Positions 5,219 through 41,182 of a stretch of 58,530 nucleotides of DNA are shown here, in pieces (position 1 is the stretch's first letter; every line of letters begins with the position of its first letter). Made by a program: the position numbers and the translations under genes. Origin of the DNA: a virus. Taxonomy: Duplodnaviria > Caudoviricetes. A model generated the notes under the pieces. It searched no databases and had not been told where the DNA came from. It was given only the letters and a program-made list of their open reading frames with translations. The stretch spans positions 1-58,530 of IMG/VR virus record IMGVR_UViG_3300043410_000871; one strand, 5' to 3'.

Positions 5219-5239
5219 AATATGATCCTGATACTATAT

Positions 5240-13402: not shown

Positions 13403-13419
13403 TTTTAGCTCTCCAAGTA

Positions 13420-13439
13420 TATTTAGCTGGCGATAAATA
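13420..13439. promoter_or_regulatory. Back-to-back late promoter motifs (CTAAATA on minus, GATAAATA on plus)
   Basis: The 42-nt gap between divergent neck genes carries a TAAATA on each strand pointing at each gene. Confidence 0.6.
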
Positions 13440-13444
13440 TCATT

Positions 13445-16068: not shown

Positions 16069-16499
16069 CAGAAAAAATCGTCTGTAGTGGCGCTTTGTTT
16101 TATGCAAAGTCTACTAGGCGCTTTCTGTTGGTTCAAAAAGCTCACGGTAAACACGAGGGAACTTGGGGTTTAGTTGGTGGCACAAATATCCCTGGCGAGA
16201 ACCCATGGCAGGGTTTAAAGAGGGAAGTTATTGAAGAAATAGGCGCAATGCCTAAAGTTATTAAAACTATCCCAATTGAAACTTTTGTTTCAAATGATAC
16301 TGTGTTTAACTTCCATACATACTTGTGTGTAATTGAGGACGAGTTTGTTCCTATACTAAGTACAGAACATATCGGGTGGGCTTGGTCCACAATTGATAGG
16401 GCGCCTAAACCATTACACCAAGGATTGCGTAATAGTTTCTCAAGCAAAACTATTCGCACAAAACTGCAAACAGTGTTTGATTTAATAGATATTCTCTAA
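16050..16499 (+). CDS. NUDIX hydrolase
   Basis: Nudix box G-TNIPG-E-NPWQGLK-REVIEEIG. Confidence 0.9.
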   Translation: MENRTITEKIVCSGALFYAKSTRRFLLVQKAHGKHEGTWGLVGGTNIPGENPWQGLKREVIEEIGAMPKVIKTIPIETFVSNDTVFNFHTYLCVIEDEFVPILSTEHIGWAWSTIDRAPKPLHQGLRNSFSSKTIRTKLQTVFDLIDIL

Positions 16500-16530
16500 C
16501 CAAGATCACTGAATTCAAAAAGCATATCAC

Positions 16531-16537
16531 GTAAATA
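16531..16537 (+). promoter_or_regulatory. Late-promoter-like motif GTAAATA upstream of the oxygenase operon
   Basis: TAAATA core about 25 nt before the GTG at 16562; the same motif precedes structural genes in this window. Confidence 0.5.
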
Positions 16538-16561
16538 CCCACTAGAACTCGGGATTAATAA

Positions 16562-17158
16562 GTGATTAAAGAACCGCTAATAATTGACGATATTGTTTCA
16601 CAACAAATCGCAGACAAGATAGAAGAAGTATTACTATCGGAAGCAGACTGGCATTTTATTTCAGATGTGACATTTGGATCAGGTGCTGATTATCGGTCAA
16701 CTCCTGCATTTGGTCACGTTTTTAAGAATACCGAATGGCCCGATCATTCAGATCCATTTTTGTCACTAGTTATGCCGGTGGTAGAAGCCGCCTGTAGTAG
16801 GATCAATTACCACATTCATTCAATACAAAAAGCAAGATCATTCTTGCAAGTCCCTTTACATGAGAGCTTCACAACAACAAAGTTGGATGCGCTACATGTT
16901 GATCAACAATTCCCTCACTTAGTAGTTCTATACTATGTCATGGATTCCGATGGTGACACTATTATTGTTGACCATAAGCGAGTTGGCGCACCGAACTATA
17001 CACTTGAAGCTGCTGATTTCCCACAACTTGTAAGAGTAACTCCCAAGAAGGGCAGAGTAGTAATCTTTGACGGTGATTATTACCACACTGCTGAACAACC
17101 AAAGCATGGGCTTCGTTGCATTGTTAATTTTAATGTATTAGGTGGTATTAGAGCATGA
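16562..17158 (+). CDS. 2OG-Fe(II) oxygenase 1 (DSDGDT subfamily)
   Basis: HVD...LYYVMDSDGDT...PKKGRVVIFDGDYYH...R: HxD..H triad plus the 2OG-binding Arg. Confidence 0.85.
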   Translation: MIKEPLIIDDIVSQQIADKIEEVLLSEADWHFISDVTFGSGADYRSTPAFGHVFKNTEWPDHSDPFLSLVMPVVEAACSRINYHIHSIQKARSFLQVPLHESFTTTKLDALHVDQQFPHLVVLYYVMDSDGDTIIVDHKRVGAPNYTLEAADFPQLVRVTPKKGRVVIFDGDYYHTAEQPKHGLRCIVNFNVLGGIRA

Positions 17159-17721
17159 ACGATATCCTAGTATTTGACGATATTATTCCAGTACAGCATC
17201 AAGAATTCCTTGAATATTATTTTCTCCGTGGTGAGAATAAATGGTATTTTCAAAAGGATATAACATACACTGACCCAGAGAATCAAGGAGCAGAAGTTAC
17301 ACACTATGGGTTTTCTAACCTAATATACGACCGTGCAACTAAGCCTGACATGGGTGCTGATTTTTATAATATCCTCCCTGTTCTTTATCAAGCAGGCGCA
17401 AGAGTGGGGTTTGATGTTGGTGCTGTACTTAGAATGCGAGCATTCCTCCAATTACCTATTGCGTCAAATGATGGCCCAATTAACAATGCACACACTGACA
17501 TGGCAATGAATCACTTAGTTGTGCTGTATTATTTGACCGACTCTGATGGTGATACATACATTTATAACGAGACTGAGAAATCAGAAACATACACCATTAA
17601 ACAACAGGTAACGCCCAAGCGTGGTAGATGCGTAGTATTTGATGGGCGACTCTACCACAGTAGCAGTAGGCCAACAAATAATAGACGCTGTATTTTAAAC
17701 ATTAATTTTATACCCAAATGA
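17155..17721 (+). CDS. 2OG-Fe(II) oxygenase 2 (DSDGDT subfamily)
   Basis: HTD...YYLTDSDGDT...PKRGRCVVFDGRLYH...R; ATGA overlap with the previous gene. Confidence 0.85.
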   Translation: MNDILVFDDIIPVQHQEFLEYYFLRGENKWYFQKDITYTDPENQGAEVTHYGFSNLIYDRATKPDMGADFYNILPVLYQAGARVGFDVGAVLRMRAFLQLPIASNDGPINNAHTDMAMNHLVVLYYLTDSDGDTYIYNETEKSETYTIKQQVTPKRGRCVVFDGRLYHSSSRPTNNRRCILNINFIPK

Positions 17722-18350
17722 CCACGTTTTATCAACCATTTGCATCACACATTTACCACAACACTGAGTCGCGAGTATCAAATCATGACGAGTTGAAAAA
17801 ATTTGTGTTAGACATGTATGCGGAATCACCAGTAAAAGAGGGAAACTTTTATCACACTGGGTTCACTACATACTTCTACGATGACTTTACGGGACATTTA
17901 TACACACATGAATTGTTTAATGAACTCCGTGACATGATTATTAGGGAAGCTAATAAGTTTGTGACTAAACGATATGAACATTTGGAGCAGCATGGAAAGA
18001 TTGTTTTTAAAAATATACGTCCATTGCGTTTTACTAACATGTGGTTTAATGTAAATCCCCCAGGTGGATATCAAGGTAGACACCACCATGCTATGAATTT
18101 GTTAGGCGGTACATACTATTTAGATGTACCAGATGAGTCTGGAAAGATTGGGTTTTATGATCCAAACCAGTTTGCATACTTTCATAATCAAGACCATAAT
18201 GCTATGAACTTGTTAATACCAGATTTCGATGTACAAACGTCTACTGGCGATTTATTAATTTGGCCAGGGTGGATGGACCATGAAATTTCAGTAAACAAGA
18301 CTGCTGATAAGAATAGGCTATCAATATCATTTGGGATTAATTGGGCATGA
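17718..18350 (+). CDS. 2OG-Fe(II) oxygenase 3 (HxH, TIGR02466-like subfamily)
   Basis: WFNVNPPGGYQGRHHH...GTYYL...GDLLIWPGWMDHEI...RLSISF. Confidence 0.8.
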   Translation: MTTFYQPFASHIYHNTESRVSNHDELKKFVLDMYAESPVKEGNFYHTGFTTYFYDDFTGHLYTHELFNELRDMIIREANKFVTKRYEHLEQHGKIVFKNIRPLRFTNMWFNVNPPGGYQGRHHHAMNLLGGTYYLDVPDESGKIGFYDPNQFAYFHNQDHNAMNLLIPDFDVQTSTGDLLIWPGWMDHEISVNKTADKNRLSISFGINWA

Positions 18351-18955
18351 TTAAAGTGTATGATGATTTATTACCCCCAGCTTTGGTTGATAGAATTGAA
18401 GCAACTCTTCTTAATGACCAATTTTATTGGTTTGCCCTGGATAACTTATCACTAGGTGGCCAGAAAGTAAAACGCGAATTTATTATGCCAGAGGGATACA
18501 AATATGTTGAGTCGCCTGGCATGACAAAGCCGTTCTGGCGTGATGGACTTTGGTACGACCCATATGACATGTTCATGATGAGTAATATGATTATTGATTA
18601 TTTTTCTGAAGCTAGTGGTATCCCAGCAAATCGTCTAGTTCGCATTAAGGGAAATATGCTAACTCCCAACCCGAATCCAGAATATGATGAAACAGCAATG
18701 CATTACCCACACATTGACTTCTATAATAATCATCATGTCTTGGTATACTATGTAAATGACAGTGATGGAGATACCGTCATCTTTAATGAAAAGTGGAGTC
18801 CTGAACATGATGGTAGTCTTATACCATTAACTATTAAAGAGCGTATTGCGCCTAAGCGTGGGAGAATTGCATACTTTGATGGACTGCATTACCATACTAG
18901 CACGAATCCAATGCATCACGGTGAGCGTGTAATTTTAAATATTAATTTCGCATGA
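18347..18955 (+). CDS. 2OG-Fe(II) oxygenase 4 (DSDGDT subfamily)
   Basis: HID...YYVNDSDGDT...PKRGRIAYFDGLHYH...R. Start placed at ATG 18347 (ATGA overlap). Confidence 0.85.
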   Translation: MIKVYDDLLPPALVDRIEATLLNDQFYWFALDNLSLGGQKVKREFIMPEGYKYVESPGMTKPFWRDGLWYDPYDMFMMSNMIIDYFSEASGIPANRLVRIKGNMLTPNPNPEYDETAMHYPHIDFYNNHHVLVYYVNDSDGDTVIFNEKWSPEHDGSLIPLTIKERIAPKRGRIAYFDGLHYHTSTNPMHHGERVILNINFA

Positions 18956-19530
18956 TACAAGTTTTTGATAACATTATCCCACTAACAGCACAACAGCGGC
19001 TTATTGATTTAGTGAATGAAAGACACTTTAGATGGTACTACAGAAAGTCTGTATCATATCAGTCCCCATCGAATGTGCCAGCGTTTTTTACAAACATGGA
19101 TACAAGTGGATATGCGTGTCCTGCATATATTAAAAATGCAATAGAAGTACAAGAGCTAATGCCATACGCACAGCAAATTTTTGATAATATGTACGACTTG
19201 ACTGGAATTAAAGTTAATGATTTAATTCGTGTTACATTCAACTTATTATATCAACACCCATCCAAGGAGTTTACTAAGGATACGTGGAACTCAGCCCACA
19301 CTGATCAACAACATGATCACAAGGTATTATTGTATTACGTGGACAACAGTGACGGTGACACATTTATTTTTAATGAAAGAGCTGGTGAGACTTTTGATAA
19401 ATTTACTGTTAATCAACGCATAACACCCAAACGTGGGTCAGCTGTGTTATTCGATGGGACACAATATCATGCCTCAAGTAACCCGCTTAATTCATTTAAA
19501 CGCTACACTATTAATTTTAACTTTGTATGA
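18952..19530 (+). CDS. 2OG-Fe(II) oxygenase 5 (DSDGDT subfamily)
   Basis: HTD...YYVDNSDGDT...PKRGSAVLFDGTQYH...R. Confidence 0.85.
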   Translation: MIQVFDNIIPLTAQQRLIDLVNERHFRWYYRKSVSYQSPSNVPAFFTNMDTSGYACPAYIKNAIEVQELMPYAQQIFDNMYDLTGIKVNDLIRVTFNLLYQHPSKEFTKDTWNSAHTDQQHDHKVLLYYVDNSDGDTFIFNERAGETFDKFTVNQRITPKRGSAVLFDGTQYHASSNPLNSFKRYTINFNFV

Positions 19531-20141
19531 ACGATATTATTGTACTAGATGATGTAATTCCTAAGCGTACACAGTATAGACTCGCTGACTATGTCTGTGA
19601 TTCAGAGTTTGCGTGGAATGATTACAACCACATTTTAACTGCTGGTATGTACTTTAAGGATGTTACAGTAACTTCAGACATGAACATGTGTCCTAGTGAT
19701 TCACTGATCAAGTTATGCTATTATAATGATTTTAGACGTAGTAAAATTTTTGATGAAACTATATATTGGTTAGGAATGGCTGTATTAGATGGATACTCGC
19801 AAAAAACTGGTGAAAAAGTCAACGGTGTTATGCGTATGAAAGTCAATAACCAAAGTGTATCCCCAATATATGGATATGATGGCAATTGCTGTAATGAGAT
19901 CCATGTAGATAATTTTGAAATGCACAAAACTTTAGTGTATTATATAAACGATAGTGATGGTGATACAATATTGTTTGATAAACTCTGGGAACCAGGTATA
20001 AAAGAATATGCTGTAAAAACTGCTGAACGAGTTACACCAAAGCAGGGTAGGATTGTGTGTTTTAATGGTTTGAGGTTCCATGCACCTAGTAATCCTATAC
20101 ATAACCGCAGACGTTATGTGTTAAATATTAACTTCTATTGA
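19527..20141 (+). CDS. 2OG-Fe(II) oxygenase 6 (DSDGDT subfamily)
   Basis: HVD...YYINDSDGDT...PKQGRIVCFNGLRFH...R. Confidence 0.85.
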   Translation: MNDIIVLDDVIPKRTQYRLADYVCDSEFAWNDYNHILTAGMYFKDVTVTSDMNMCPSDSLIKLCYYNDFRRSKIFDETIYWLGMAVLDGYSQKTGEKVNGVMRMKVNNQSVSPIYGYDGNCCNEIHVDNFEMHKTLVYYINDSDGDTILFDKLWEPGIKEYAVKTAERVTPKQGRIVCFNGLRFHAPSNPIHNRRRYVLNINFY

Positions 20142-20148
20142 GATAAAC

Positions 20149-20739
20149 ATGAAATCAGATATTAAAGACTTTATTGGTATTTTTGACGATGTTGTTAGCA
20201 AAGAGTTTTGCAACGATGTTATTGACTATTACAGATATGTACAGAATGCATCATTAACTTGCAGTAGGCAAGCAGCAGAGGGTGTTGAAAAGTTTAAAAA
20301 GCAGGATGACACTTACTTTTTCCAAGATGAAATGCAACAGGAATTCCAGTTGCATAATACAAATATTTTGCAAGAAGCAAATAGAGCATTTGCTGATTGT
20401 ATAAATGCATATTTTAATCACTATGACATTCTATACTCAACAAATTATGGAGTGTATTCATATAGGTTGCAAAAGACACCAATTAATGGAGGATACCATG
20501 TTTGGCACCATGAGCGTGGGGATTTAGAAAATCAGCATAGAATGCTGGCCATGATCCTATACCTTAATGATGTTGATGACGGTGGTGAGACTGAGTTCCA
20601 CTATTATCCACGTAGGGTGCAAGCAAAAGCCGGGCGAGTTCTAATATGCCCAGCTGATTTTACACATACACATCGTGGCAATCCGCCACTATCTAACGAA
20701 AAATATATTATTACAACTTGGGCATCTCACGTAAAATGA
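20149..20739 (+). CDS. 2OG-Fe(II) oxygenase 7 (prolyl-4-hydroxylase-like, HxE)
   Basis: GGYHVWHHE...ILYLNDVDDGGETEF...GRVLICPADFTHTHRGNPPLSNEKYIITTW. Confidence 0.88.
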   Translation: MKSDIKDFIGIFDDVVSKEFCNDVIDYYRYVQNASLTCSRQAAEGVEKFKKQDDTYFFQDEMQQEFQLHNTNILQEANRAFADCINAYFNHYDILYSTNYGVYSYRLQKTPINGGYHVWHHERGDLENQHRMLAMILYLNDVDDGGETEFHYYPRRVQAKAGRVLICPADFTHTHRGNPPLSNEKYIITTWASHVK

Positions 20740-21359
20740 TTAAAATTATTGACGATTTCTTACCAGAACCATTATTTGAAAGACTTTATCAGGATATAAC
20801 GTCCTTTGACTTTCCATGGTTTTATTTAAAAGATACTACCTATAAGAGCAAGTACAGTGATGACGAAGCTCTGTGGGATGACGGATTTTCATGCTTAATA
20901 TATTTGCAAAAAATTGATGAACAATTTGAGTTTAAAGCGCCTGCTTATGAAGCGTTTGTTCCACTAATGGCACATTGTGAGTTTGCTTTAGGATATAAAA
21001 TGTCATCATTAGCCAGGGTTAAAGCAAATCTAAGCACTACATCTATTACTAATGCTCCATTTGAACCACACGTTGATCAACCAGATGTTGCTATGAACAC
21101 TGCAATTTTGTATTTAAATGACTCCGATGGCCCAACATATATCTATGATAATAAATGCCCAGTTGGATCAACAACCAACCAGGCATTAGAGTATTATAGA
21201 AAGAATAAAGATGATTTTAAAGTACTCTGTGCGGTTCCGCCTAAACGCAATCGTATGGTATTATTTGATGGTGATTATTATCACTCTGGATCACGCCCAG
21301 TAACTAATAAAACCAGATTGAATATTAACTTCAACTGGTTTGCCAAAACTACTGAGTAA
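20736..21359 (+). CDS. 2OG-Fe(II) oxygenase 8 (DSDG subfamily)
   Basis: HVD...ILYLNDSDGPT...PKRNRMVLFDGDYYH...R. Start placed at ATG 20736 (ATGA overlap). Confidence 0.85.
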   Translation: MIKIIDDFLPEPLFERLYQDITSFDFPWFYLKDTTYKSKYSDDEALWDDGFSCLIYLQKIDEQFEFKAPAYEAFVPLMAHCEFALGYKMSSLARVKANLSTTSITNAPFEPHVDQPDVAMNTAILYLNDSDGPTYIYDNKCPVGSTTNQALEYYRKNKDDFKVLCAVPPKRNRMVLFDGDYYHSGSRPVTNKTRLNINFNWFAKTTE

Positions 21360-22632
21360 TTATTTTAATACCTTTAAAGTGATCCGCATGTCCACGTAGT
21401 GCTTGGGCATCGCGGTTTACTTCAATTAGACTGTCAAAGTCCGGTGCTCCAAAAGTTCTTTCACATGCGTGGCAATCCCAACACTCGTTCTTACAATTCT
21501 TTAGAACAGCATTGAGTGACTTTCCTTTACCAGTAGTCCATACAGTCTCACTATCAATTTGTGCGACATTTTCAAAAGTAGACTCATACTTGACATTACA
21601 ATAGCGCAACGGTTGGAAATTAGAAACAACTCCTGGATTATTTTCCATTATTTCTTCAAAATAATTTGCCATGCCATATTGAGCACCTGATTCAATGACA
21701 CCATTTAGGTTTGCATTGTCAGCAGCCCACTTTTGTCCTTTGACGTGTGCAATATTTGACCAGACAAATTTCTGATCATAGCTATTGTTTGGCATTGACA
21801 TCATGCGTCCAGAAAATTTAAAGTAGTCAACCTTATTTCTATATTCTTCAAACGTAGCTTTATTTGCCCAAACCATTTCGGTACCAATACGTGGGAGTTC
21901 GTTATACATCTGATGGCGCCAACGTTTACATGTCATGTTGCCATGATTTTCCCAGTAACTCCACCCAATTTCTTTATTCATCGTATCATGCTCAACTTTG
22001 AATGCACAGTTAGGCATACAGCCCTCTGTTACTAGCAATGATAGTTTTAAATTGGGAAACTTTTTACGAACTGGTTGCATTGCTTCAAGTGCATCCATAT
22101 TACGGTTTAAACTTCGATCCAAGTTAATAACGTCATATCCAAGAGCATGGTAATCAACTACTTGCTGTGGAGTGGTAATGATATGATTTACAGTATTCTT
22201 CCAGCGCATTTCTGGGAAATTACGTTGTAATATAGTAGTAGCCATCATATGTACATGTGAAATAGTACACGAACGTACACCCATTTCATAGTACTTACCA
22301 ATATGGTCTACAAAACCATTCATAATATCCATGTCTTCAACTAACTCCCTATTAGGATATGTTTCGTTAAAAGTTAATGATATTTCAATACCAAATTCTT
22401 TCTGGATCTTTAGTAGCGTTTGAATGTGTGCTTCATCCAGAGGCGCAGCCATCACATCACCGTAAATTCTTTCTACACCGTTGTATGTGTATCGATATGG
22501 GTCTGAGAAATAGATATCAAATATTTCTGCTCGGTATCTAGGATGTGAGTTTTTAATGCAGTGGTAGTAAAGCTCTGGGTCCTTAGTAAAACTAGGGTAA
22601 CCGAATGAAAATAGTTTATTGTAATTGCTCAT
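21349..22632 (-). CDS. U32 'peptidase'-family Fe-S protein (putative O2-independent hydroxylase)
   Basis: TIM-barrel pattern TVNHII..., INLDRSLNRN, LLVTEGCMPNC..H, VDYFKFSGR, plus a C-terminal CxxxCxxCxxC (CKNECWDCHAC). Confidence 0.65.
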   Translation of the reverse strand: MSNYNKLFSFGYPSFTKDPELYYHCIKNSHPRYRAEIFDIYFSDPYRYTYNGVERIYGDVMAAPLDEAHIQTLLKIQKEFGIEISLTFNETYPNRELVEDMDIMNGFVDHIGKYYEMGVRSCTISHVHMMATTILQRNFPEMRWKNTVNHIITTPQQVVDYHALGYDVINLDRSLNRNMDALEAMQPVRKKFPNLKLSLLVTEGCMPNCAFKVEHDTMNKEIGWSYWENHGNMTCKRWRHQMYNELPRIGTEMVWANKATFEEYRNKVDYFKFSGRMMSMPNNSYDQKFVWSNIAHVKGQKWAADNANLNGVIESGAQYGMANYFEEIMENNPGVVSNFQPLRYCNVKYESTFENVAQIDSETVWTTGKGKSLNAVLKNCKNECWDCHACERTFGAPDFDSLIEVNRDAQALRGHADHFKGIKIITQ

Positions 22633-22640
22633 AAAGATGA

Positions 22641-22670
22641 AAAAAGGTAAGTGTATTACTTACCCTTTTT
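22641..22670. terminator. Bidirectional terminator-like hairpin
   Basis: AAAAA-GGTAAGT-gtatt-ACTTACC-CTTTTT between the 22690 gene and the U32-family gene. Confidence 0.6.
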
Positions 22671-22689
22671 GTAAACTCACCAGTGGGGA

Positions 22690-23211
22690 TTATGGTTTAT
22701 ATGGACCAGAAACTGGGTTATCCCATTTTCCACTCATGTAATCTGCTGCCAACTCGTCAGCCATTTCCTGTGGTGTTTTGATTCTATATGCAGGATCGTC
22801 TGGGTGTTCATCATGTAAATTAATCATTACTTCCACTCTGCTAGATAACTCATCATTAGCTGCTAACATTGCTTCATGGTTGTCTTTAGGGAATAAAATC
22901 TTAATTTTTTCAATCCTTGCTGCCCATTCAGCCAACGGGTCCGTGTCACCATTTTGTACTGCTTTAAAAATAGTATCAAGCTGTGAACCAACGTCACCAT
23001 ATGCAACTCTACGAGCAACTTCGTAACGAGTTTCTGGTTTATATGGTGGACTAAATTCACCAGTTTCCCAGTTGTATTCCCACATGAATTGAACTTCTGG
23101 TCCGCATTCGTGCCAAACACTGTCAACGTGGACGTCAAAACGTTCTTGTTCATTTTCCGCGATACCTTGAACACGGGTTTCCTTAATATGCACTAGTGCG
23201 TATCTTGCCAT
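22690..23211 (-). CDS. Tail-fibre-associated / assembly chaperone-like protein
   Basis: YEVARRVAYGDVGSQLDTIFK...W...IEKIK..FPK motif, typical of small proteins encoded beside phage fibre genes. Confidence 0.55.
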   Translation of the reverse strand: MARYALVHIKETRVQGIAENEQERFDVHVDSVWHECGPEVQFMWEYNWETGEFSPPYKPETRYEVARRVAYGDVGSQLDTIFKAVQNGDTDPLAEWAARIEKIKILFPKDNHEAMLAANDELSSRVEVMINLHDEHPDDPAYRIKTPQEMADELAADYMSGKWDNPVSGPYKP

Positions 23212-23213
23212 TT

Positions 23214-24845
23214 TTATTGCTCCTCATTCTTAATATGAATATGTTTTTTTAGATACTCATAATGGGTAGGTAATTTCTCAATTGTTGGTAATAAAACGTT
23301 GTCTCTATATTCGACCCAATTCTTTGTGCTTTCTTCAGCACTCCATTGATTACGCATACCATACCTATCATTATCATCTTGTAAGTATCTCTTATTTACC
23401 GGATTATAGTTCTGTCCGGCAGCGATATACATAACTCCACCCATATTAAAGTCATATGCGTGATTAGTTAAAATTCTAGTTGAAAGATCCATATATGCAT
23501 TGCGTAAGCGTGGAACCCAATCATTCATTTCTGGTGAATAGCTTAGTTCCTGTGTTACATATTGCCAATATGGGGTGTCATGACGTTGTGACATTGTGTA
23601 GTGCAAAGAAATAAAGTCTTTAAAACCAACAATTTGGTCATGGAACGCAAAATTGTAAGTGTCAATGTCAAATTTAGTTACAAAGCCGTCGTGCTGTTGT
23701 AGTGTATCAATAATCTTCATGATACCCTCGTGTGTTAACATTAAACCAGTTGACTCTAGTGGCTCAATAAAGCCCATAGCCAATCCAATGCCTACAACAT
23801 TTTTAATCCAGCCCTGCTTGTGTGTACCGTGCTTAATCTTGATATGCTTTAATTCAGCTTGTTCTGCACGTTCTTGAGCACCTTCTCCATGGTAGTCCAT
23901 GCGGTTGCTTGCTAAGTACTTTCTAAATTGTGCTTCAGCTTCTTCCTCAGTTGCAAATTTGCTTGAGTAAACATACCCTGTACCAATACGATTAAACAAT
24001 GGAATGTTCCATGCCCATCCTGCTTCCAATGCAGTACAGTTTGTAGCAGAAGTCATTTCATTTTCAGTATCAATGTACGGAATAATTGTTGCAATGGCTC
24101 TGTCGTTCATCAATGTGTCGTGGAATGAAATAAATTCTGATCCCATTTGACCTTCCAACAACAGTGAACGGAAACCAGTACAGTCAATATACAAGTCAGC
24201 AGTTAATGTACCGCTGTTTTCAGTAATAATACCTGAGATTGAACCGTCATCGGCCTTTGTTGCGCCTGTCATTGTATCAAGAATGTGGTTAACACCTTCT
24301 GGAATACAAACATGATTCTTTAAGTATTGACCAAATAATGCAGCATCCATGTGGTATGCAGTATCGTATTTGAAATTAAAACCACGAATTTCAAAATTTT
24401 CATTATTTGTCATTTTGTTATGATCAGCCATAACAACGTGTGGGTGATAAAATTCAGCAAACGAGCGTGGTGGCCATGCATCTTTGTCGCCAGCATTTAA
24501 CAAGAACCATTCCATTGGACCATTTGGTTTATGTGTAATATCGCATATACCGAATGGATAATGGAATACATCTGGCTTTTCACCAGGTGCTTCTCTAAAA
24601 TCAGTAAACTTAATTGATGTTTTATATGTTGCGTTGCAGTGTGGCATCCACTCTTCGTCTTTAAGACCAACTGCGTTCATATAGCTGTTGATGTGACCAA
24701 TTGTACTTTCACCGACACCAATAGTTGGAATGCCCGGTGCTTCCATCAGTGTAATTTTAAGAGATGGTATTTGACGAACTAATGCGGCTGCTGTCATCCA
24801 ACCTGAACTCCCACCACCGACAATTAAAACACTTTTGATTTGCAT
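23214..24845 (-). CDS. Flavin-dependent halogenase (tryptophan halogenase / PrnA-like family)
   Basis: GGGSSG FAD motif, IGVGEST, catalytic Lys equivalent ATYK(75), DLYIDCTGF, WAWNIP (WxWxIP) and FIEPLESTG. Confidence 0.92.
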   Translation of the reverse strand: MQIKSVLIVGGGSSGWMTAAALVRQIPSLKITLMEAPGIPTIGVGESTIGHINSYMNAVGLKDEEWMPHCNATYKTSIKFTDFREAPGEKPDVFHYPFGICDITHKPNGPMEWFLLNAGDKDAWPPRSFAEFYHPHVVMADHNKMTNNENFEIRGFNFKYDTAYHMDAALFGQYLKNHVCIPEGVNHILDTMTGATKADDGSISGIITENSGTLTADLYIDCTGFRSLLLEGQMGSEFISFHDTLMNDRAIATIIPYIDTENEMTSATNCTALEAGWAWNIPLFNRIGTGYVYSSKFATEEEAEAQFRKYLASNRMDYHGEGAQERAEQAELKHIKIKHGTHKQGWIKNVVGIGLAMGFIEPLESTGLMLTHEGIMKIIDTLQQHDGFVTKFDIDTYNFAFHDQIVGFKDFISLHYTMSQRHDTPYWQYVTQELSYSPEMNDWVPRLRNAYMDLSTRILTNHAYDFNMGGVMYIAAGQNYNPVNKRYLQDDNDRYGMRNQWSAEESTKNWVEYRDNVLLPTIEKLPTHYEYLKKHIHIKNEEQ

Positions 24846-24876
24846 ATTGTTACCCTAATAAGTTATCGACTACTTA

Positions 24877-25566
24877 TTATCTGTAGGAATATACTACAAC
24901 AATTCCGGATGCGCCATAACCACCGCGAGAATGGTTTGAGTGGCAGCTCGAACCGCCTGCACCAGGTGCTTGGTAATGATCTTCACCAGTGTAACCGTAT
25001 GAATTATTACTCCATCCAGGGAACTTTGATCCACCGTAGAAACTCATACCACCTTTCCCGCCGCGGTTATCATGTCCTGAACCACCACCGCCAAATACGT
25101 TAATATCACCGCCGTGTCCTTGACCACCATGGCCGCCTGAGTGACCCCAGTTACGATTTGCGCCATAGCCACCACTTGCTGAAATCCATGGGCCAAATGA
25201 ACTTGTTCCACCGTCACCGCAATTTGAGTAATAACCACCGCCCCATCCGCGACCACCAACAGTAACTGACACTGTGCTATATCCACTTACGTCGATGTAT
25301 TTTTCAGCCATACCACCAGCTGCTCCAGATTCACCGTGGGCACATGAGCCGCCGCCACCACCGACTACAACTGCTCGCACATATCTACATCCACTTGGTT
25401 TTGTCCAAGTATAACCACCAGACACAGAAAGATTGTGACTATTACTCGGTGGAAATGTATCAATTTGAATTAATTCCCCCTGTGAGTCAGTGTCCTGCAT
25501 GAAACGGTTTGCTTGAACCGAACCATCAGGGAATGTAATTTGTGTATTTCCGATTTTTGTTGCCAT
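24877..25566 (-). CDS. Glycine-rich fibre/adhesin-like protein A
   Basis: ITFPDGSVQ N-terminus, TWTKPSG..VRAVVVGGGGG, repeated GGxGG motifs, C-terminal GASGIVVVY. Confidence 0.75.
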   Translation of the reverse strand: MATKIGNTQITFPDGSVQANRFMQDTDSQGELIQIDTFPPSNSHNLSVSGGYTWTKPSGCRYVRAVVVGGGGGSCAHGESGAAGGMAEKYIDVSGYSTVSVTVGGRGWGGGYYSNCGDGGTSSFGPWISASGGYGANRNWGHSGGHGGQGHGGDINVFGGGGSGHDNRGGKGGMSFYGGSKFPGWSNNSYGYTGEDHYQAPGAGGSSCHSNHSRGGYGASGIVVVYSYR

Positions 25567-25581
25567 TTTATACCTTAAATC

Positions 25582-26271
25582 TTATCTGTAAGAATATACA
25601 ACTACAATTCCAGAAGCACCGTATCCACCTCGAGAGTGGTTTGAGTGACAACTTGAACCACCTGCACCAGGTGCTTGGTAATGGTCTTCACCAGTGTAGC
25701 CATATGAGTTATTGTGCCATCCAGGGAATTTAGAGCCGCCATAGAAGCTCATACCGCCCTTACCACCGCGGTTGTCGTGTCCTGAACCACCACCACCGAA
25801 TACATTAATATCGCCACCATGGCCTTGGCCACCATGTCCGCCTGAATGCCCCCAGTTGCGATTTGCACCGTAACCACCACTTGCTGAAATCCATGGACCA
25901 AAGCTACTAGTACCACCATCGCCACAGTTAGAATAGTAACCGCCACCTGCACCACGTCCACCGACAGTAACTGACACTGTGCTATAACCGGATACATCTA
26001 TATATTTTTCAGCCATACCGCCAGCGGCACCGGATTCCCCGTGAGCGCAAGAACCACCACCACCACCGACTACAACTGCTCTCACGTATCGACAGCCAGA
26101 TGGTTTTGTCCAAGTATAGCCACCAGAAACTGACAAATTATGACTGTTACCAGGTGGGAATGTATCAATTTGAATCAATTCACCTTGTGAATCAGCATCC
26201 TGCATAAATCGGTTAGACTGAACTGATCCATCAGGGAATGTAATTTGTGTATTTCCGATTTTTGTTGCCAT
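25582..26271 (-). CDS. Glycine-rich fibre/adhesin-like protein B (224/229 aa identical to A)
   Basis: Same architecture as protein A with five substitutions. Confidence 0.75.
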   Translation of the reverse strand: MATKIGNTQITFPDGSVQSNRFMQDADSQGELIQIDTFPPGNSHNLSVSGGYTWTKPSGCRYVRAVVVGGGGGSCAHGESGAAGGMAEKYIDVSGYSTVSVTVGGRGAGGGYYSNCGDGGTSSFGPWISASGGYGANRNWGHSGGHGGQGHGGDINVFGGGGSGHDNRGGKGGMSFYGGSKFPGWHNNSYGYTGEDHYQAPGAGGSSCHSNHSRGGYGASGIVVVYSYR

Positions 26272-26280
26272 AATAATCTG

Positions 26281-26946
26281 TTATGAATAGTTATAAACAA
26301 TACAAATGCCACTTGTGCCATAACCACCACGGCTATGTTGTGACCACTCGCCATTACCACCAGTACCTGGAGGATTGTGGTTCAAACCTTCGTTCCAGTG
26401 TCTATAGTAGTAACCACCATGGTGTCCAGCAACTTGAGAGCCGCCAAAAAATGATTCACCACCACGGTCTTGGCCTTGGTCACCATGTGAACGGCCACCG
26501 CCACCCCACACGTTTACGTTACCGCCACCACCGTGGCCACCACGGCCACCAGTGTGGCCCCAGTCTGTATTTGCACCACGACCACCAGTTGCGTGATTAT
26601 ATGGACCAAACGCGGTTTGACCGCCATCACCACAACCTTGGTGATATGTTCTACCGTCACCACCGCCACCGATTGTCACACTTACTGTTGACAAGCCAGT
26701 AGCATCTAATAATAATTCTGAATAACCACCTGCACCGCCGGATTCATTGTGGCCGCAACCACCACCGCCACCACCAACACAAACAACTACAATCTTTCGG
26801 CAATCAGACGGCTTTGTCCAAGTACCACTGCTTGTGAATGTATCAACTCTGATTAATCTACCTTTGTCCAATGAATAGTTAAATGTGGTAGATTGTACTG
26901 TACCGTCATTATATTGAATACCAGATGATGTTAATTTAACTGTCAT
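26281..26946 (-). CDS. Glycine-rich fibre/adhesin-like protein C
   Basis: FTSSGTWTKP..CVGGGGGG, GANTDWGHTGG, GTSGICIVY. Confidence 0.75.
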   Translation of the reverse strand: MTVKLTSSGIQYNDGTVQSTTFNYSLDKGRLIRVDTFTSSGTWTKPSDCRKIVVVCVGGGGGGCGHNESGGAGGYSELLLDATGLSTVSVTIGGGGDGRTYHQGCGDGGQTAFGPYNHATGGRGANTDWGHTGGRGGHGGGGNVNVWGGGGRSHGDQGQDRGGESFFGGSQVAGHHGGYYYRHWNEGLNHNPPGTGGNGEWSQHSRGGYGTSGICIVYNYS

Positions 26947-26955
26947 ATTTCTCTC

Positions 26956-27615
26956 TTACGTAAAATTCCATACCATTACTGCGCCGTCTTTACCATGTTC
27001 ACCACGTCCATGTGATGTCCATGTTCCAACGCCGCCCGCGCCTGGAGCGCAATGGTTTTCTGTGTTGTTACCGTGTGCATGATGGTGAGCACCAATTGAC
27101 CCACCGCCCCAATATGAACCTGCGCCGTTGTGTCCGGCTTCATTTTCATGTCCAGAACCACCGCCACCACGTAAGTTCACGTTACCACCGTGTCCAATAC
27201 CACCGTGGCCACCTGTATGGCCCCAGTTACGATTTGCACCATATCCGCCAGAAGCAGCTACATATGGACCAAAACTAGATGTGTATCCATCTTCACGGTT
27301 TGAGTAATACCCCGCACCGTAGCCACCGCGACCAACAGTAACAGTTGTAGAACTAATACCTGTAACATCAAGCCAAAGTTCTGAATAACCACCAGACCCG
27401 CCGCCCTCACAGTGTCCACTAGCACCGCCACCACCACCAACACAAATAATACGTACCATACGGCCACCTGAAGGTCTACTCCAAGTATATGAACCGTTGG
27501 TAGTCCAAGAGTCAACTCTTAGTAACTTACCGCGGTCATCGTTGGCGTCATACCTAGCAGTTTGTGAAGTGCTATCTGGGTATACAATACCCGTTGACGT
27601 TAGCTTTACTGACAT
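26956..27615 (-). CDS. Glycine-rich fibre/adhesin-like protein D
   Basis: YTWSRPSG..CVGGGGG, GANRNWGHTGG, GKDGAVMVW. Confidence 0.75.
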   Translation of the reverse strand: MSVKLTSTGIVYPDSTSQTARYDANDDRGKLLRVDSWTTNGSYTWSRPSGGRMVRIICVGGGGGASGHCEGGGSGGYSELWLDVTGISSTTVTVGRGGYGAGYYSNREDGYTSSFGPYVAASGGYGANRNWGHTGGHGGIGHGGNVNLRGGGGSGHENEAGHNGAGSYWGGGSIGAHHHAHGNNTENHCAPGAGGVGTWTSHGRGEHGKDGAVMVWNFT

Positions 27616-27618
27616 GTA

Positions 27619-28740
27619 TTACTCTCCAATTCTTGCTTTAAGGCTGGCAACTTCTGCACTAAGTTCTTTAATGCCTTGAATCAATAATGGAACAATTTTT
27701 TCATAGTTTACAGCCAGATAACCATTATCACGTTTGATAACAGCTTCTGGAAGTACTTCTTCGATCTCTTGAGCAATAACACCAATATCGTTTACTTTAC
27801 GATCTGGATATAGATCAAGAGCTAATTGATTCCAATCGAAATTATAGCCGCCAATTTTATCGATCTTATTTAGTGCATTGCCAATTGGGGTAATCTTAGT
27901 TTTGAGGTTTCTATCTGATGAATACCAAGCAGTAATATCGTTACCGCAGTTAATAACGCTAGAAACGTATAACGCACCACCAATACCAACACCTCCACCA
28001 ACAACTAACGCACCGCTAGAATAGCTTGATGAACCAGTCGTACTCTGTACAGCCATTGTGCCAGAAAACTGACCATAACCACCAGAAACAACGTTACCAC
28101 CAGCATACACGTTACCAGCAATACCAGCACCGCCTGAAACTCTTAGCGCACCAGTTGATGTGCTTGAAGAACCAGTACTTGATGTTGTAACTAAGTCACC
28201 GTTTGCGTTCACTGATGTGAAGTTTGCAGAACCACGTGTAGTACCACCAATATTAATGTTATCCATTGTACCAGTAGTACCAGAAGTCAATGTAATTGTA
28301 CCAGAACCAGTTGGTGTAATACTAACGTTGGCGTTACTTGGGTTAACTGTTAATGCACCAGTGTTAGTGATACCAACAACACTTAATGAACTAGATAATG
28401 TTAATGTTGATCCAATCTGTGGACCACCTTCGTTGTTTGTTACAACGAAGTCAGTACCATCAGAAGTTAATGTATACGCTGCTTGGTTAGGAATAACTTG
28501 TGATGCTGCCGCAGTAAAACCAGGACCCTTAATGTTACCACTAGGGGTTGTTAAAGTTACTGCTGCACCAGTGTTATTCCAGTAAGTTTGTGACTGACCT
28601 GAATATAATACAGGACTAGCCAGTGTAACAGTATATGGGCCAGAACCAGTAAAGGTTGTCAACTGACCTTGTGTCAATGACGACAAGGTTGTAGTAGTCG
28701 TGGTAGTACCAACTGGCGCTACTGTATTATATCGTGCCAT
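27619..28740 (-). CDS. Tail fibre protein with C-terminal intramolecular chaperone (peptidase S74)
   Basis: GALxVxGGxGI repeats, then SDRNLK (Ser-Lys autocleavage dyad), GVIAQEIEEVLPEAV, VNYEKIVPLLIQGIKEL and a coiled coil. Confidence 0.9.
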   Translation of the reverse strand: MARYNTVAPVGTTTTTTTLSSLTQGQLTTFTGSGPYTVTLASPVLYSGQSQTYWNNTGAAVTLTTPSGNIKGPGFTAAASQVIPNQAAYTLTSDGTDFVVTNNEGGPQIGSTLTLSSSLSVVGITNTGALTVNPSNANVSITPTGSGTITLTSGTTGTMDNINIGGTTRGSANFTSVNANGDLVTTSSTGSSSTSTGALRVSGGAGIAGNVYAGGNVVSGGYGQFSGTMAVQSTTGSSSYSSGALVVGGGVGIGGALYVSSVINCGNDITAWYSSDRNLKTKITPIGNALNKIDKIGGYNFDWNQLALDLYPDRKVNDIGVIAQEIEEVLPEAVIKRDNGYLAVNYEKIVPLLIQGIKELSAEVASLKARIGE

Positions 28741-28755
28741 GTTCCAAATCCCCTA

Positions 28756-29082
28756 TTATGATGTTGATGTTTCGATTCCGTAAACTGTTACGTTTACTGC
28801 TGAACCAGCACTTGCGTATGCTACAACCAACTTGCCTGCGTCAAGAACCAAACCAGTTCTTTCAAATACACCCTTACCCAAAATAACAGTGTCGTACTCA
28901 ATCCACTCGGCTGTGCCTGGTGATGACGTTGCTGCCATTGCTAGTCTAATAGTCACTGACGACGCACTCGTGTTAGTGAATGATACGTTAAAAACTGAGT
29001 AGTACCCAGTTGGAATCGTATATACAGTAGTATTGGTAGCTGCCGCTAACTGCTGTGGAACCGCTAATCTTCCTGTTGCCAT
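28756..29082 (-). CDS. Small virion structural protein (~110-aa paralog family)
   Basis: TTVYTIP..N..VTIRL..IEYD..LVL pattern shared with 49457..49789 and 53062..53394. Confidence 0.7.
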   Translation of the reverse strand: MATGRLAVPQQLAAATNTTVYTIPTGYYSVFNVSFTNTSASSVTIRLAMAATSSPGTAEWIEYDTVILGKGVFERTGLVLDAGKLVVAYASAGSAVNVTVYGIETSTS

Positions 29083-29096
29083 TTAATTTTCTCCAA

Positions 29097-32000
29097 TTAT
29101 CTTTGCATAAAGAACCCAAGGGCAACGGGCGCACCGTCAATACCACCTGTAAAGTTCATTTTACTTGTTACGTTTAGTCCTACACCTGTTGTAGTACTGA
29201 TGCTGTTACCAGCTACATACACAACGCCCGAGGTCAATGTATTTACGTTCAAACTACTTTGACCGCCACCGATCTGTGATGTAATGTATGCTCTAATTGC
29301 TCTTTGTGTAGGAACAATACTATCGCTGTTAGCTGTGAAGTATGGATCTGTACTGAATTGCGTAATAATCGCGCTTCCGATACCCAATTCCACGCTACCC
29401 AATTGCAAGCTATTTAAACCAGCCAAGTTAAACGCTGAAGCGTTCAATGTAGCTGTACCAGTTGCCTGTTGTACCCCGAACAAGTTACCAACGTTGAAGT
29501 TACCGTCTTGGTCAGTACTTGTAAAGAACACACGACCACCTGCTGAATACAACTCTTGGTGAGCTTGGTTCGCTGCTTGTAGCGGTGTTCCTGGGAAGTT
29601 AGTTGTGGTATAACCACCTGTACCAATGTACAAGAAGTCATGTCCAGTTAAACGAACTTGTGAATATTTAATACGTGTTGTAATCAAATCACCATGTTTT
29701 GGTGCTTGTAATACAGTTAAACCTGGGTTGATTTGGAAAGTAGCTGTGTACTTGCCATAACCATCTGGAAGAACTGCCGTTACAGTAACTAACTTGAAGT
29801 ACAATCCTGGTAAGCTAGCAAATTCAACGTTTGCACCAGCTTGAGGTGCTTGGAATAGTCCAGACACGTTAATGAATGTGCTTGCTTGGTATAGATCGCT
29901 ATAACCGTCACCAGCTGTATCAGAAGTTGCAGTAGTATTATTTGCACCGCGGTTACTGAAGCTTGGGTTACCCAAAGCACCATCACCTAAACGCATTCTT
30001 AAAGCAACTGCCTTAACGTGGTTAGTATCTGTTACAGTCCAAATTGGACCTGCACGATATGTCATACCACTTGGTGAAGTTGTAGACAATGTAACTGCTG
30101 TTGAGCTTCCTGCTGTTGCAGATACTTTGAACTGTGTAGAAGTAATAGTAGAACCAATTACGTAGTAAGTTGTTCCAGCTGTTAAACCGCCTGAATCAGT
30201 ACCAAAGAACTCAATTGGTTGACTATCAACTAAGTTAATAGTGTTATCAACAGTAATCAAGTTTGTTGAAGTTGTTGTTGCAGATACTGCACCCTTTGGA
30301 TATCCAGATCCTGGATCAACCATACGAACTTCTGTTACAACACCACCAGCTACTTTTACACGACCCAATGCTGTTGCACCAGTTCTTAATGTTGCTGCTG
30401 TTGTACCACTTGTGCTAGAAATAGCAACCCAAGTTGGGTTATTCGATGGATTACCGAAGTGTACATCGTTCCAGTTACTGCTACTTGGCAATGCTTGTAG
30501 AGTCCAGTTGATACCAAATGGGCTTGTTGCTACTACAGTACCACCACTTGCTACTGCAACGAATAAACCTTCACCGTAGCGTACACGAGTCCATGTAGTA
30601 CTTGTTGGTAATCCAATTGGTGCTGCTGTCCAAGTTACACCCTTGTCTAAGCTGTATGCTACTGAACGACCACCACTTGCAATTGCTACAAAACGACCGT
30701 TACCATATGCAACGTTTGTCCATGTTGTTGAGCTTGGTAAGTTACCACCCTGTGTCCATGAAGTACCGTTTGTTGAATATGCAGTTGACAAGTCGTTTGT
30801 ACTAATTGCGACAAATGTACCGTTACCGTATGTTACAGAGTTCCATGTGCCAGTAGTTGTTGGAATAGTTCTGCTAATCCATGTTGTACCAGTTGTGCTT
30901 GAAACTGCACTTGCTGTACCACCAACTGCCACGAACATACCACCACCATAAACAATCGATGTCAAATCTGTCTTGCCAGTTGACCCACCAGCTGTCCATG
31001 TTGTACCAGCAGCAATTGCTGTTGATGTTGTGTATGCACTTGTTGTTGAACCGTTTGCAATTGCAACAACCTTGGCAACGCTATCACTAATAACAACGGT
31101 TGGTGTCGATGTATAACCAGCACCTGAGTATCCTAGGTAGTTAGTGTTATCTTCTCTAATTGTGTTTGAGTCAACTAGTAAGATTTGTGAAACGCCACTA
31201 TTTGTTAGAATAGCCTGTGCAGTTGCAGTTACGCTTGGTGAGCCACCGCCTGTAATTGTAATTGTTGGGGCACTTGTGAAGTTCTTACCCCATGTATTAA
31301 CAACAATCTTAGTTACACGGTCAGTAGCTGCTGCAACTGTTGGCGCAGTAGTGTACCCAGAACCTGGAATTGTCACTGTTACAGAAACAATCTTACCGTT
31401 CAATACTACCGCAGTAGCTTTAGCACCACTACCACCATTTGTTGGAGTAAACAAGATTGTTGGAGGTGTTGTATAACCTTGACCACCGTCAACAATTGTC
31501 ACACTAGCAACTTGGTCAGCTGTTGCTGCACCAGTTGTATTTGGTACACCCAATACTGCTGTTAGGATAGCACCACGGCCACCTAGACCACCAACAATAG
31601 CTGTAGCAGTTGCTTGTTCGCCACCACCGTATGTTAAGCCAGTCCATGATGCACTGCTTGGTAATGCACCAGCTGTTGCCCATGTTGCACCGTCTCTTGA
31701 ATAACCAGTTGTTGTACCAGTTGTTGGGATAGCAACGAACATTCCGTCACCATACTCAACCTTGTTCCAAGTTGTTGATGCGTTTAATGTACGTGCAGTA
31801 GCAGTAAAGCCAGGTGCAGTATAACTTACTCTTGGTTCAATTGTGTAACCAGTAGTTAAGTCAAGTGCATTCTTGATAGTAGTTCCTGGGATAATATGAT
31901 CCCAACCTGCTGCTAATAATGTAATTGATACTGAGCCAGTTGTTGTAATTGTTACTGCTGTACCAGCTGCACCAGTTGTACTTACTGAGAACTGTGTGCT

Positions 32001-41123: not shown

Positions 41124-41182
41124 TTTATTGTTCCTCTGATAATATTTATCTTATCAAAATCTTCTGTTTTTCAAACCACTGA

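Follow-up and report, generated by a model that had tools for sequence, protein, structure and literature searches.

A VirX1-type halogenase gene and a small partner gene are inherited together with glycine-rich fibre genes in cyanophages and a freshwater jumbo phage lineage

The contig IMGVR_UViG_3300043410_000871, a phage sequence of 58,530 bases that was analysed at full length and is called the window below, carries a block of oxidative enzyme genes next to the fibre genes of its tail module. Here we report that one of these enzymes, a VirX1-type flavin-dependent halogenase, is co-inherited with the neighbouring Gly_rich_2 genes and with a 173-residue gene, p173. Kyanoviridae cyanophages and this jumbo phage lineage both pass on the glycine-rich (Gly-rich) genes, p173 and the halogenase gene as a trio; the halogenase and p173 are probably also co-expressed with the Gly_rich_2 genes, whose products are predicted fibre-tip domains. 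A sequence-only reading of the block had proposed a wider system, in which eight 2-oxoglutarate (2OG) oxygenases, a U32 Fe-S enzyme and the halogenase all modify the Gly-rich fibre proteins of the virion. Our finding is narrower than that proposal and gains real support: the genomic co-occurrence of enzymes and Gly-rich genes, to which the proposal had been tied, was found for the halogenase and p173, and was weak or absent for the 2OG array and the U32-like gene.

The halogenase gene (23214–24845, minus strand) matches PF04820 with an E value of 1.6e-105 and 354 bits, against a cut-off of 21. As the sequence-only reading had stated, it comes directly after the Gly-rich genes and on their strand, with a gap of 31 bases. 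The four Gly-rich paralogs it had described are located at 24877–27615 on the minus strand; they are 219–229 residues in length, and each of them contains both a PF21722 match (38.9–48.4 bits against a cut-off of 24.3) and the motif GAN[RT][ND]WGH[ST]GG. Paralog 1 (24877–25566; PF21722 E 2.3e-10, phrog_863 E 7e-39) reads GANRNWGHSGG, and it is followed by paralog 2 (25582–26271; E 5.8e-11), paralog 3 (26281–26946; E 1.6e-12) and paralog 4 (26956–27615; E 1.3e-9), the last of which reads GANRNWGHTGG. A genome-level family search of the contig for PF21722 gave no match despite these four, a false negative that seems to stem from a first-look filter missing this low-complexity family; a query by alignment worked. 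On the other side of the halogenase lies the conserved partner gene p173 (22690–23211, minus strand), which matches phrog_1787 and no Pfam family at E values up to 10. Pairwise BLASTP identified Syn9 gp40 (9e-9) and S-CREM1_68 (5e-10) as p173 homologues; tblastn with p173 gave no match. In the direction of transcription, the minus-strand order is a giant fibre of 4008 residues, a small gene (p108), an S74 fibre, the four Gly-rich genes, the halogenase, p173, a hairpin and P427, the U32-like gene. The eight plus-strand 2OG genes converge on P427 from the neck and sheath-completion side.

The linkage was followed in relatives at 58 IMG/VR loci, which were seeded with the Gly-rich alignment and scanned with custom hidden Markov models; 39 of them have at least 5 kb downstream. 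These loci are not phylogenetically independent, and many are near-duplicates. Among the 39, the halogenase is present in 31, P427 in 12, either one of the two in 37, p173 in 30 and some 2OG gene in 33. All 30 loci with at least two Gly-rich genes and at least 5 kb downstream have a halogenase. In each of the eight loci that lack one, there is only one Gly-rich gene, which is of a divergent subtype; P427 is found in six of these eight. Two metagenomic relatives are large, one (L005, from genome G003) complete at 354 kb and the other (L006, from G004) 265 kb in size; in the complete one, the only halogenase of the whole genome is located 2.3 kb from its only three Gly-rich genes. A quick tree was built from 62 distinct halogenases. 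It resolved a VirX1-like clade with good support, and 50 of the 55 rows of this clade lie within 6 kb of a Gly-rich gene. Because the five exceptions are scattered inside the clade, the linkage looks ancestral, with later separations.

Cultured phages give a similar picture. By tblastn, 64 phage records match the halogenase and 15 match the Gly-rich proteins, and all 15 have a halogenase no more than 4.3 kb away. Six isolates with a halogenase at least 37% identical to that of the window were inspected in detail (S-CREM1, Syn9, S-WAM1, S-SZBM1, Sf-FR1 and Sf-CH11), and in all six, PF21722/Gly-rich genes adjoin the halogenase. Profile searches identified two to three Gly-rich genes, p173, the halogenase and 2OG genes in S-WAM1, S-SZBM1 and Sf-FR1. 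In Sf-CH11 (locus L107, 5773–11935), the order 2OG, 2OG, halogenase, 2OG, 2OG is sandwiched between two divergent PF21722 proteins, which the depositors annotated as GspG-C-terminal and LamG-like. Across lineages there are at least five local gene orders, and proximity is kept in all of them: Gly-rich, p173, halogenase; Gly-rich, p173, 2OG, halogenase; Gly-rich, p173, P427, 2OG, halogenase; Gly-rich, halogenase, p173, P427, as in the window; and variants with genes on opposite strands or with the Sf-CH11 sandwich. In the freshwater Synechococcus phage S-SRM01, a tail fibre and a Gly/Trp/Cys-rich protein flank a distant halogenase (29% identity). The Gly/Trp/Cys-rich protein (L074, 13500–14588) is 362 residues in length, contains a Trp/Cys-rich stretch and is annotated as 'gp37-gp38 adhesin tip complex'. 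It showed no homology to the Gly-rich profile (hhalign probability 0.3%), and S-SRM01 therefore counts only as an analogous arrangement.

The row in the window is packed like an operon. From the giant fibre gene (29097–41123, minus strand), the first gene of the predicted late unit, to p173, all gaps are at most 57 nucleotides. About 20–25 nucleotides upstream of the giant fibre gene is an ATAAATA motif (41143–41149, minus strand), which resembles a T4 late promoter and may function as one. Seven minus-strand copies of the motif are present in the window; those at 5237, 7465, 11523, 41143 and 55477 lie at most 60 nucleotides upstream of p205, a tube-like gene, the sheath gene, the giant fibre gene and p194, respectively. 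The only sizeable gap of the row follows p173, and it holds a terminator-like hairpin (22640–22670, minus strand) with a 13-pair stem and then a T run. In Syn9, ATAAATA is located 27–33 nucleotides upstream of gp34 (fibre), gp38 (Gly-rich) and gp40 (the p173 homologue), and from gp40 to gp54 there is no gap longer than 20 nucleotides. The motif was found within 70 nucleotides upstream of 19 of 43 p173 genes and 25 of 63 first Gly-rich genes, compared with 150 of 1075 background open reading frames (ORFs). Contigs from an RNA library cover 30 of 30 bins of positions 13000–30000, a coverage that may include DNA carry-over and carries no expression levels; one of them reaches from p173 through the halogenase gene into the 3′ end of paralog 1. 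An RNA-library contig ends at the hairpin while the DNA contig continues, which is a weak hint only. The expression class was also sought in PMC7238727, which makes no mention of the cluster genes.

The best solved relative of the halogenase is VirX1 (6qgm), matched over residues 2–537 with an E value of 1e-148, and tblastn gave 44% identity to the Syn10 gene. The review PMC8407142 names GxGxxG, WxWxIP, a catalytic Lys and a Glu for this enzyme class. Like VirX1, the window halogenase conserves all of them: G10, G11, G12 and G15 (GxGxxG), K75, W277, W279, P282 and E361 are invariant in 30 halogenase sequences, and the WxWxIP motif reads WAWNIP. By position, K75 would be the equivalent of VirX1 K79. 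The catalytic residues are intact in the alignment. VirX1, from phage Syn10, forms a trimer with a large and accessible active site and prefers I over Br over Cl; the available part of PMC8407142 lists neither a gene cluster nor a natural substrate for it.

Paralog 3 of the Gly-rich proteins was modelled with AlphaFold2 (mean predicted local distance difference test score, pLDDT, 84.4). The best fold matches of the model are, in order, the cyanophage Pam3 fibre (7ypx_A, E 2e-8), the tail tip of mycobacteriophage Bxb1 (9d93) and the glycine-rich domain of the receptors ALK/LTK; a PDB sequence search with the Gly-rich profile found nothing useful. The matches to the Pam3 fibre (7ypx, 7yfw) and the Bxb1 tail tip have E values of 2e-8 to 4e-6 and template modelling (TM) scores of 0.5–0.6. 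Different from those proteins, with which they share 21–26% identity, the Gly-rich proteins of the window are four short tandem paralogs instead of one. These fold matches lead us to assign the Gly-rich proteins as predicted fibre-tip domains with a fold that cryo-EM has shown in the virions of Pam3 and Bxb1. Model confidence is lowest at residues ∼150–200, a His- and aromatic-rich segment that is also the most variable between the paralogs.

Compared with ten other proteins of the window, the paralogs are clearly enriched only in Gly (25–27% versus 9.5%) and His (3.9–5.9% versus 1.1%). The sequence-only reading had described them as rich in His, Trp, Tyr and Asn, and for three of these residues the description did not survive: Trp is 1.7–3.2% versus 1.6%, Tyr 5.0–6.1% versus 4.9% and Asn 5.2–5.9% versus 6.4%. 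Variable receptor-binding loops would explain the composition in the absence of any modification. Two further observations concern this gene array. Paralogs 1 and 2 share 98% protein identity, and their DNA is identical at 573 of 690 bases (83%), with 101 synonymous and 5 non-synonymous codon differences spread evenly along the gene, a pattern that suggests either very strong purifying selection on both tandem copies or selection that disfavours recombination between them. A His-rich ORF of 139 residues (26283–26702, plus strand) runs antisense to paralog 3; most likely it is no gene and arises as a mirror image of the Gly-rich coding strand.

We tentatively read the row as a fibre-tip cassette that is expressed late and includes a halogenase directed at the tip proteins, a proposal that we rate as plausible and somewhat short of probable. 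According to this proposal, the halogenase and p173 would be made late, together with the tip proteins, and the halogenase would then act on the Gly-rich proteins, the likeliest targets being conserved or loop Tyr or His and not the Trp of the motif. Such a modification would change the surface with which the phage binds its receptor. The U32-like enzyme and the 2OG array would belong to the known cyanophage dioxygenase-halogenase cluster as variable additions; they may also act as hydroxylases on these virion proteins or on others, a step that has less support. Extended to the whole enzyme group, the proposal becomes doubtful: we consider it rather unlikely that Gly-rich tips are the natural substrate of VirX1-type halogenases at large, with Tyr, His or Trp halogenated or hydroxylated before assembly, perhaps with the help of p173 and 2OG enzymes. 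Of the original idea that the phage modifies its fibre tips, the part that stands is the linkage of the halogenase and p173 to the Gly-rich genes; the expectations about gene dosage, the motif Trp and a layout strictly like that of ribosomally synthesised and post-translationally modified peptides (RiPPs) fell.

The strongest competitor of this reading is a metabolic one, and we regard it as a realistic possibility that is still less than probable. In that case the block would be an accessory small-molecule cluster, functionally unrelated to the fibre-tip genes and adjacent to them through a shared hyperplastic region and inherited order, and it might produce halogenated or hydroxylated metabolites derived from amino acids, or turn over 2-oxoglutarate. 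Iyer et al. 2010 proposed the synthesis of halogenated (organohalogen) secondary metabolites for the Syn9 cluster and described bacterial clusters of a halogenase, SapC, a TonB receptor and a Syn9-gp52-like dioxygenase that contain no fibres (PMC2938197); Sullivan et al. 2010 suggested a role of the 2OG oxygenases connected with 2-oxoglutarate and nitrogen status (PMC3037559). VirX1 itself halogenates many diverse small molecules in vitro (PMC8407142). These precedents, together with the observations in the remainder of this paragraph and in the next, weigh against an action on fibre tips. All support for the proposal is genomic context, from loci that share descent; T4-like structural regions keep their gene order by descent, and the site of the block is a known hyperplastic region (PMC3037559). 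The closest IMG/VR halogenase (51% identity; loci L061 and L062) lies with three 2OG genes among small non-structural genes, and no Gly-rich gene is present within 10 kb, both loci being 11–16% fragments. In HTVC008M, the halogenase and 2OG genes are located between packaging genes, and Gly-rich genes are absent; in S-B64, the halogenase is 87 kb away from the Gly-rich gene; in S-MbCM6 it adjoins psbA and hli, and in Campylobacter phage CP21 it adjoins a ligase. None of the 64 halogenase-bearing records has the name of a Pseudanabaena or Mycobacterium phage, so that Pam3 and Bxb1, the phages with fibres of the same fold, do not belong to them, with the presence of these two in the collection unchecked.

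Gene numbers belong on the same side. The number of enzymes had been expected to track the number of Gly-rich genes, and it does not: 2OG genes, which range from 1 to 10 per locus, are related to Gly-rich genes with a Spearman coefficient of 0.30 (p 0.07, on non-independent loci), and in loci with a halogenase there is no evident relation between the numbers of Gly-rich genes and halogenases. The Trp of the motif was considered as a halogenation site and rejected, since among 161 aligned Gly-rich ORFs, Trp is found there only in the four of the window; elsewhere the position is mostly N, Y, Q, H or G. Several halogenase-linked paralogs contain no Trp and many have 0–1, with 5–15 His and 6–20 Tyr.

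Other results speak against a purely metabolic cluster. The non-core Gly-rich genes and the halogenase stay together in a region of high turnover, with halogenase identity down to ∼38% and through several rearrangements, and the single halogenase of a 354 kb genome is found beside the only Gly-rich array of that genome. Late-promoter-like motifs and operon-like packing with structural genes would be unusual for metabolic genes. In addition, Pfam and PHROG scans identified no peptide synthetase, transporter or other pathway gene in the block.

A set of 109 distinct halogenase-linked Gly-rich proteins was compared with 7 unlinked ones. The linked proteins retain E68, E77, Y101, N126, H131 (99%) and H154 (100%), and the unlinked ones have other residues at these positions; position 101 is Tyr in 100% of the linked proteins and Asn in the unlinked ones. 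As the unlinked set is one small divergent subfamily, this contrast is only a lead, and as such it would favour Tyr or His over Trp. The same residues may be read in another way. The invariant E68, E77, Y101, H131 and H154 could form a metal or ligand site, and the link between enzymes and tips could be indirect: the enzymes would act on another target in adsorption or fibre assembly, which might be part of the host surface, a different virion protein (the giant fibres, for example) or a cofactor or small ligand that the tip binds. The Gly-rich proteins would then have p173 as their actual partner, in the role of an assembly chaperone. In most loci, the Gly-rich genes are separated from the halogenase by p173, and the virion proteome of cyanophage S-SCSM2R was found to contain a 2OG oxygenase, which the authors took as carried along or highly expressed (PMC12801897). 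The sequence-only reading had called p173 fibre-chaperone-like. Language-model neighbours of p173 are XkdW and tail-assembly-chaperone clusters, with scores of 0.84–0.86 that fall below the 0.9 reliability level, and no Pfam family backs them; p173 is possibly chaperone-like. We hold an indirect link to be improbable, since no result indicates a ligand or an alternative target, the residue contrast depends on seven sequences of a single divergent subfamily, and the p173 assignment is below the reliability level.

The eight 2OG oxygenases of the sequence-only reading were recovered as eight head-to-tail ORFs on the plus strand (16562–21359), all of which have 2OG-Fe(II) family matches. Six of them belong to the phrog_274 type: og1 (16562–17158; PF13640 19.1 bits, phrog_274 E 1.1e-29), og2 (17155–17721; PF13640 27.9 bits, phrog_274 E 1.3e-36), og4 (18341–18955; PF13640 23.4 bits, phrog_274 E 2.7e-33), og5 (18952–19530; PF13640 26.6 bits, phrog_274 E 3.3e-30), og6 (19527–20141; PF13640 25.6 bits, phrog_274 E 5.4e-25) and og8 (20718–21359; PF13640 29.2 and DUF6445 31.6 bits, phrog_274 E 2.4e-39). 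The Pfam cut-off was reached by og2, og3 (PF13759, 72.9 bits), og7 (43.7 bits) and og8, and missed by og1, og4, og5 and og6, the four of which match phrog_274 at E values of 5e-25 to 3e-33. In the alignment, the six phrog_274-type ORFs, og1 included, show HxD...H with an invariant distal H175 and an R about 10 residues further; the placement of the iron triad is ambiguous in og3 and og7. The array thus contains at least three 2OG types, the other two being phrog_81/PF13759/TIGR02466 for og3 (17718–18350; PF13759 E 3.1e-20, TIGR02466 77.5 bits) and phrog_61 for og7 (20149–20739; PF13640 E 5.5e-11, phrog_61 E 4.4e-48). The nearest PDB entries of og3 are the uncharacterised 2rg4 and 3bvc (E 6e-14), and og7 is weakly similar to the Bacillus anthracis prolyl 4-hydroxylase (3itq, 5hv0; E 2.5e-4). 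In S-TIM4, a 2OG gene is one of six non-particle genes that were mutated during host adaptation (PMC6224464). Together with the S-SCSM2R proteome, this counts as circumstantial evidence for the fibre-tip reading.

PHROG labels phrog_274 as 'DNA endonuclease V', and RefSeq uses the same label in Syn9, S-WAM1 and Sf-FR1. Since its members match 2OG Pfam models and carry HxD...H, the label is probably a wrongly propagated one, and it looks like a name carried over between records. It is one of the two arguments for an action of the 2OG oxygenases on nucleic acids, as AlkB-like repair or base modification, the other being the DNA-repair proposal of Weigele et al. 2007 as cited by Sullivan et al. 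(PMC3037559). Searches of Pfam, NCBIfam and PDB found no AlkB or Tet/JBP family match for any of the eight ORFs, and the only solved relatives found are the prolyl 4-hydroxylase and the uncharacterised proteins mentioned above. An action on nucleic acids is therefore very unlikely.

P427 (21349–22632, minus strand) is a TIM-barrel protein of 427 residues with a U32-like fold and two conserved Cys clusters (AlphaFold2 pLDDT 89.9). The sequence-only reading had named it a U32 Fe-S enzyme, which the fold upholds and the sequence does not. The best fold match of the model is the U32 peptidase Mk0906 (5d88; Foldseek E 6e-8); VIA-align superimposed 229 of 247 residues with a Z score of 16.3 and a root-mean-square deviation of 3.2, and the next TIM barrels have Z scores of at most 10.9. 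No Pfam or NCBIfam match was found even at an E value of 10, PF01136 included, nor was any PDB sequence match, and none of the 120 P427 homologues listed has a Pfam domain. P427 is accordingly called U32-like here, and not a member of the family. E203, C205, C209, H215, D216, C235 and C380/C384/C387/C390 are invariant in 35 sequences, and C122 is conserved in at least 90%. Like the U32 family, P427 is predicted to contain a TIM barrel, and its conserved Cys residues could hold an Fe-S cluster; different from the family, it has an additional C-terminal CX3CX2CX2C. The U32 family includes O2-independent hydroxylases, namely UbiU/UbiV, TrhP and RlhA.

The P427 family has 392 homologues at E values up to 1e-5, and it is common in metagenome-assembled genomes of anaerobes. 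The neighbours of these homologues, mostly bacterial and from anaerobes, are reductive dehalogenase, AP_endonuc_2 barrel and URO-D-like genes. Only 2 of 25 P427-family loci have Gly-rich or p173 neighbours, and both were taken as viral contigs; this distribution speaks for the metabolic alternative and against a role of P427 at the fibre tip. Three P427 copies are present on one Dehalogenimonas chromosome (L082, L085 and L090), one of them beside a reductive dehalogenase, and an AP_endonuc_2 TIM-barrel gene adjoins the P427-family gene in two of three contexts examined, with further loci at L092 and L103.

The dioxygenase-halogenase cluster itself is already known, and the window is a member of it in a freshwater jumbo phage with an added U32-fold protein. 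In Syn9, Iyer et al. 2010 described a tandem row of ten dioxygenases, which represent at least five families, together with two Trp halogenases and one protein of the dUTPase fold (PMC2938197). Like Syn9 gp40–gp54, the window has tandem and distinct 2OG-Fe(II) dioxygenases beside a gene of the Trp-halogenase type in a T4-like phage; its eight 2OG ORFs represent at least three types and are located ∼1.9 kb from the halogenase, and the same families are found in the same neighbourhood in Syn9 and S-CREM1. Also like the window, Syn9 has two upstream Gly-rich 'tail fiber assembly' genes (gp38 and gp39) and the p173 homologue gp40; the available part of PMC2938197 does not connect the Syn9 cluster to fibre genes. 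Different from Syn9, the window contains one halogenase instead of two, and no JmjC/MINA-type or dUTPase-fold gene was detected in it. It has in addition the U32-fold protein, four Gly-rich paralogs and a 2OG array on the opposite strand, and it comes from a freshwater phage of ∼350 kb.

The idea that dioxygenases modify a neighbouring Gly-rich or fibre-like protein has a precedent in the same work, which predicted that other bacterial dioxygenase operons hydroxylate co-encoded tail-collar/collagen-like Gly-rich proteins (PMC2938197). Unlike the window, those operons contain β-hydroxylase and phytanoyl-CoA-type dioxygenases and sulfotransferases and no halogenase, and their function is a predicted one. 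The resemblance of og7 to the B. anthracis prolyl 4-hydroxylases, weak as it is, is to a class that acts on proteins. Other precedents for an action on peptides or proteins are the flavin halogenases MibH and SrpI, which act on ribosomal peptides, and the protein prolyl 4-hydroxylase of chlorovirus PBCV-1. The layout of the window was once likened to a RiPP cluster, a comparison that does not hold in the strict sense: the candidate substrates are whole folded fibre domains, as the paralog 3 model indicates, and not leader-core peptides. Different from the substrates of peptide halogenases, these virion domains of about 220 residues have no leader peptide. None of the 21 proteins scanned matched a Pfam or PHROG family of RiPP recognition elements, leader proteases or exporters; two of them, p173 and p108, have no family.

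The role of the cyanophage 2OG arrays and the natural substrate of VirX1 are left open in the available parts of PMC3037559, PMC2938197 and PMC8407142, and our search of the available literature found no paper that ties phage halogenases to glycine-rich fibre proteins. The linkage names a concrete candidate substrate for VirX1-type halogenases, the Gly_rich_2 fibre-tip proteins, and the idea is testable, as the block is found in the cultured phages Syn9, Syn10, S-WAM1 and S-CREM1. If true, a virion protein would for the first time be seen to be halogenated by an enzyme, phages in halide-containing waters would have a new means of adjusting adsorption, host range or stability, and halogenation would join the known ways in which phages diversify their receptor-binding proteins. 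If false, the cluster stays an unexplained metabolite pathway as Iyer et al. proposed, and the window adds a further example, from a freshwater jumbo phage.

Pfam and PHROG matches identify the window as the structural region of a myovirus with a T4-like module; it contains terminase, tail tube, sheath, neck, sheath-completion, giant fibre and major head protein genes. CheckV estimated a completeness of 16%, which indicates a full genome of roughly 350 kb, and the public runs that contain the contig are mostly labelled as freshwater metagenomes. The enzyme block was correctly placed inside the tail module by the sequence-only reading, as it is flanked by a gp15-like tail sheath stabiliser and by the giant fibre genes. 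The stabiliser gene (14635–16068, plus strand; PF16724 E 7.8e-23, phrog_11196 and phrog_227) forms the left border of the block, and a NUDIX hydrolase gene (16050–16499, plus strand; PF00293 E 8.5e-14) follows. When the region was searched against phages at the nucleotide level, no match was obtained. By tblastn, the best matches of the gp15-like protein are Sinorhizobium and Pseudomonas jumbo phages (33–35% identity) and not cyanophage isolates. The fibre and enzyme block, in contrast, is of the marine Kyanoviridae type.

Upstream of the Gly-rich genes, the S74 fibre gene (27619–28740, minus strand) encodes a protein with a C-terminal S74 intramolecular chaperone domain, in agreement with the sequence-only reading; PF13884 matches residues 275–334 (E 7.6e-16, 58.6 bits against a cut-off of 22), and many tail-fibre PHROGs also match. 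The small conserved gene p108 (28756–29082, minus strand) encodes 108 residues. By phmmer it was found in 25 loci of the first scan, where it mostly heads the row of fibre and Gly-rich genes. The 4008-residue giant fibre-like protein shows several long internal repeats in its translation, and a second giant fibre-like protein of 2619 residues is encoded at 41183–49042 on the minus strand.

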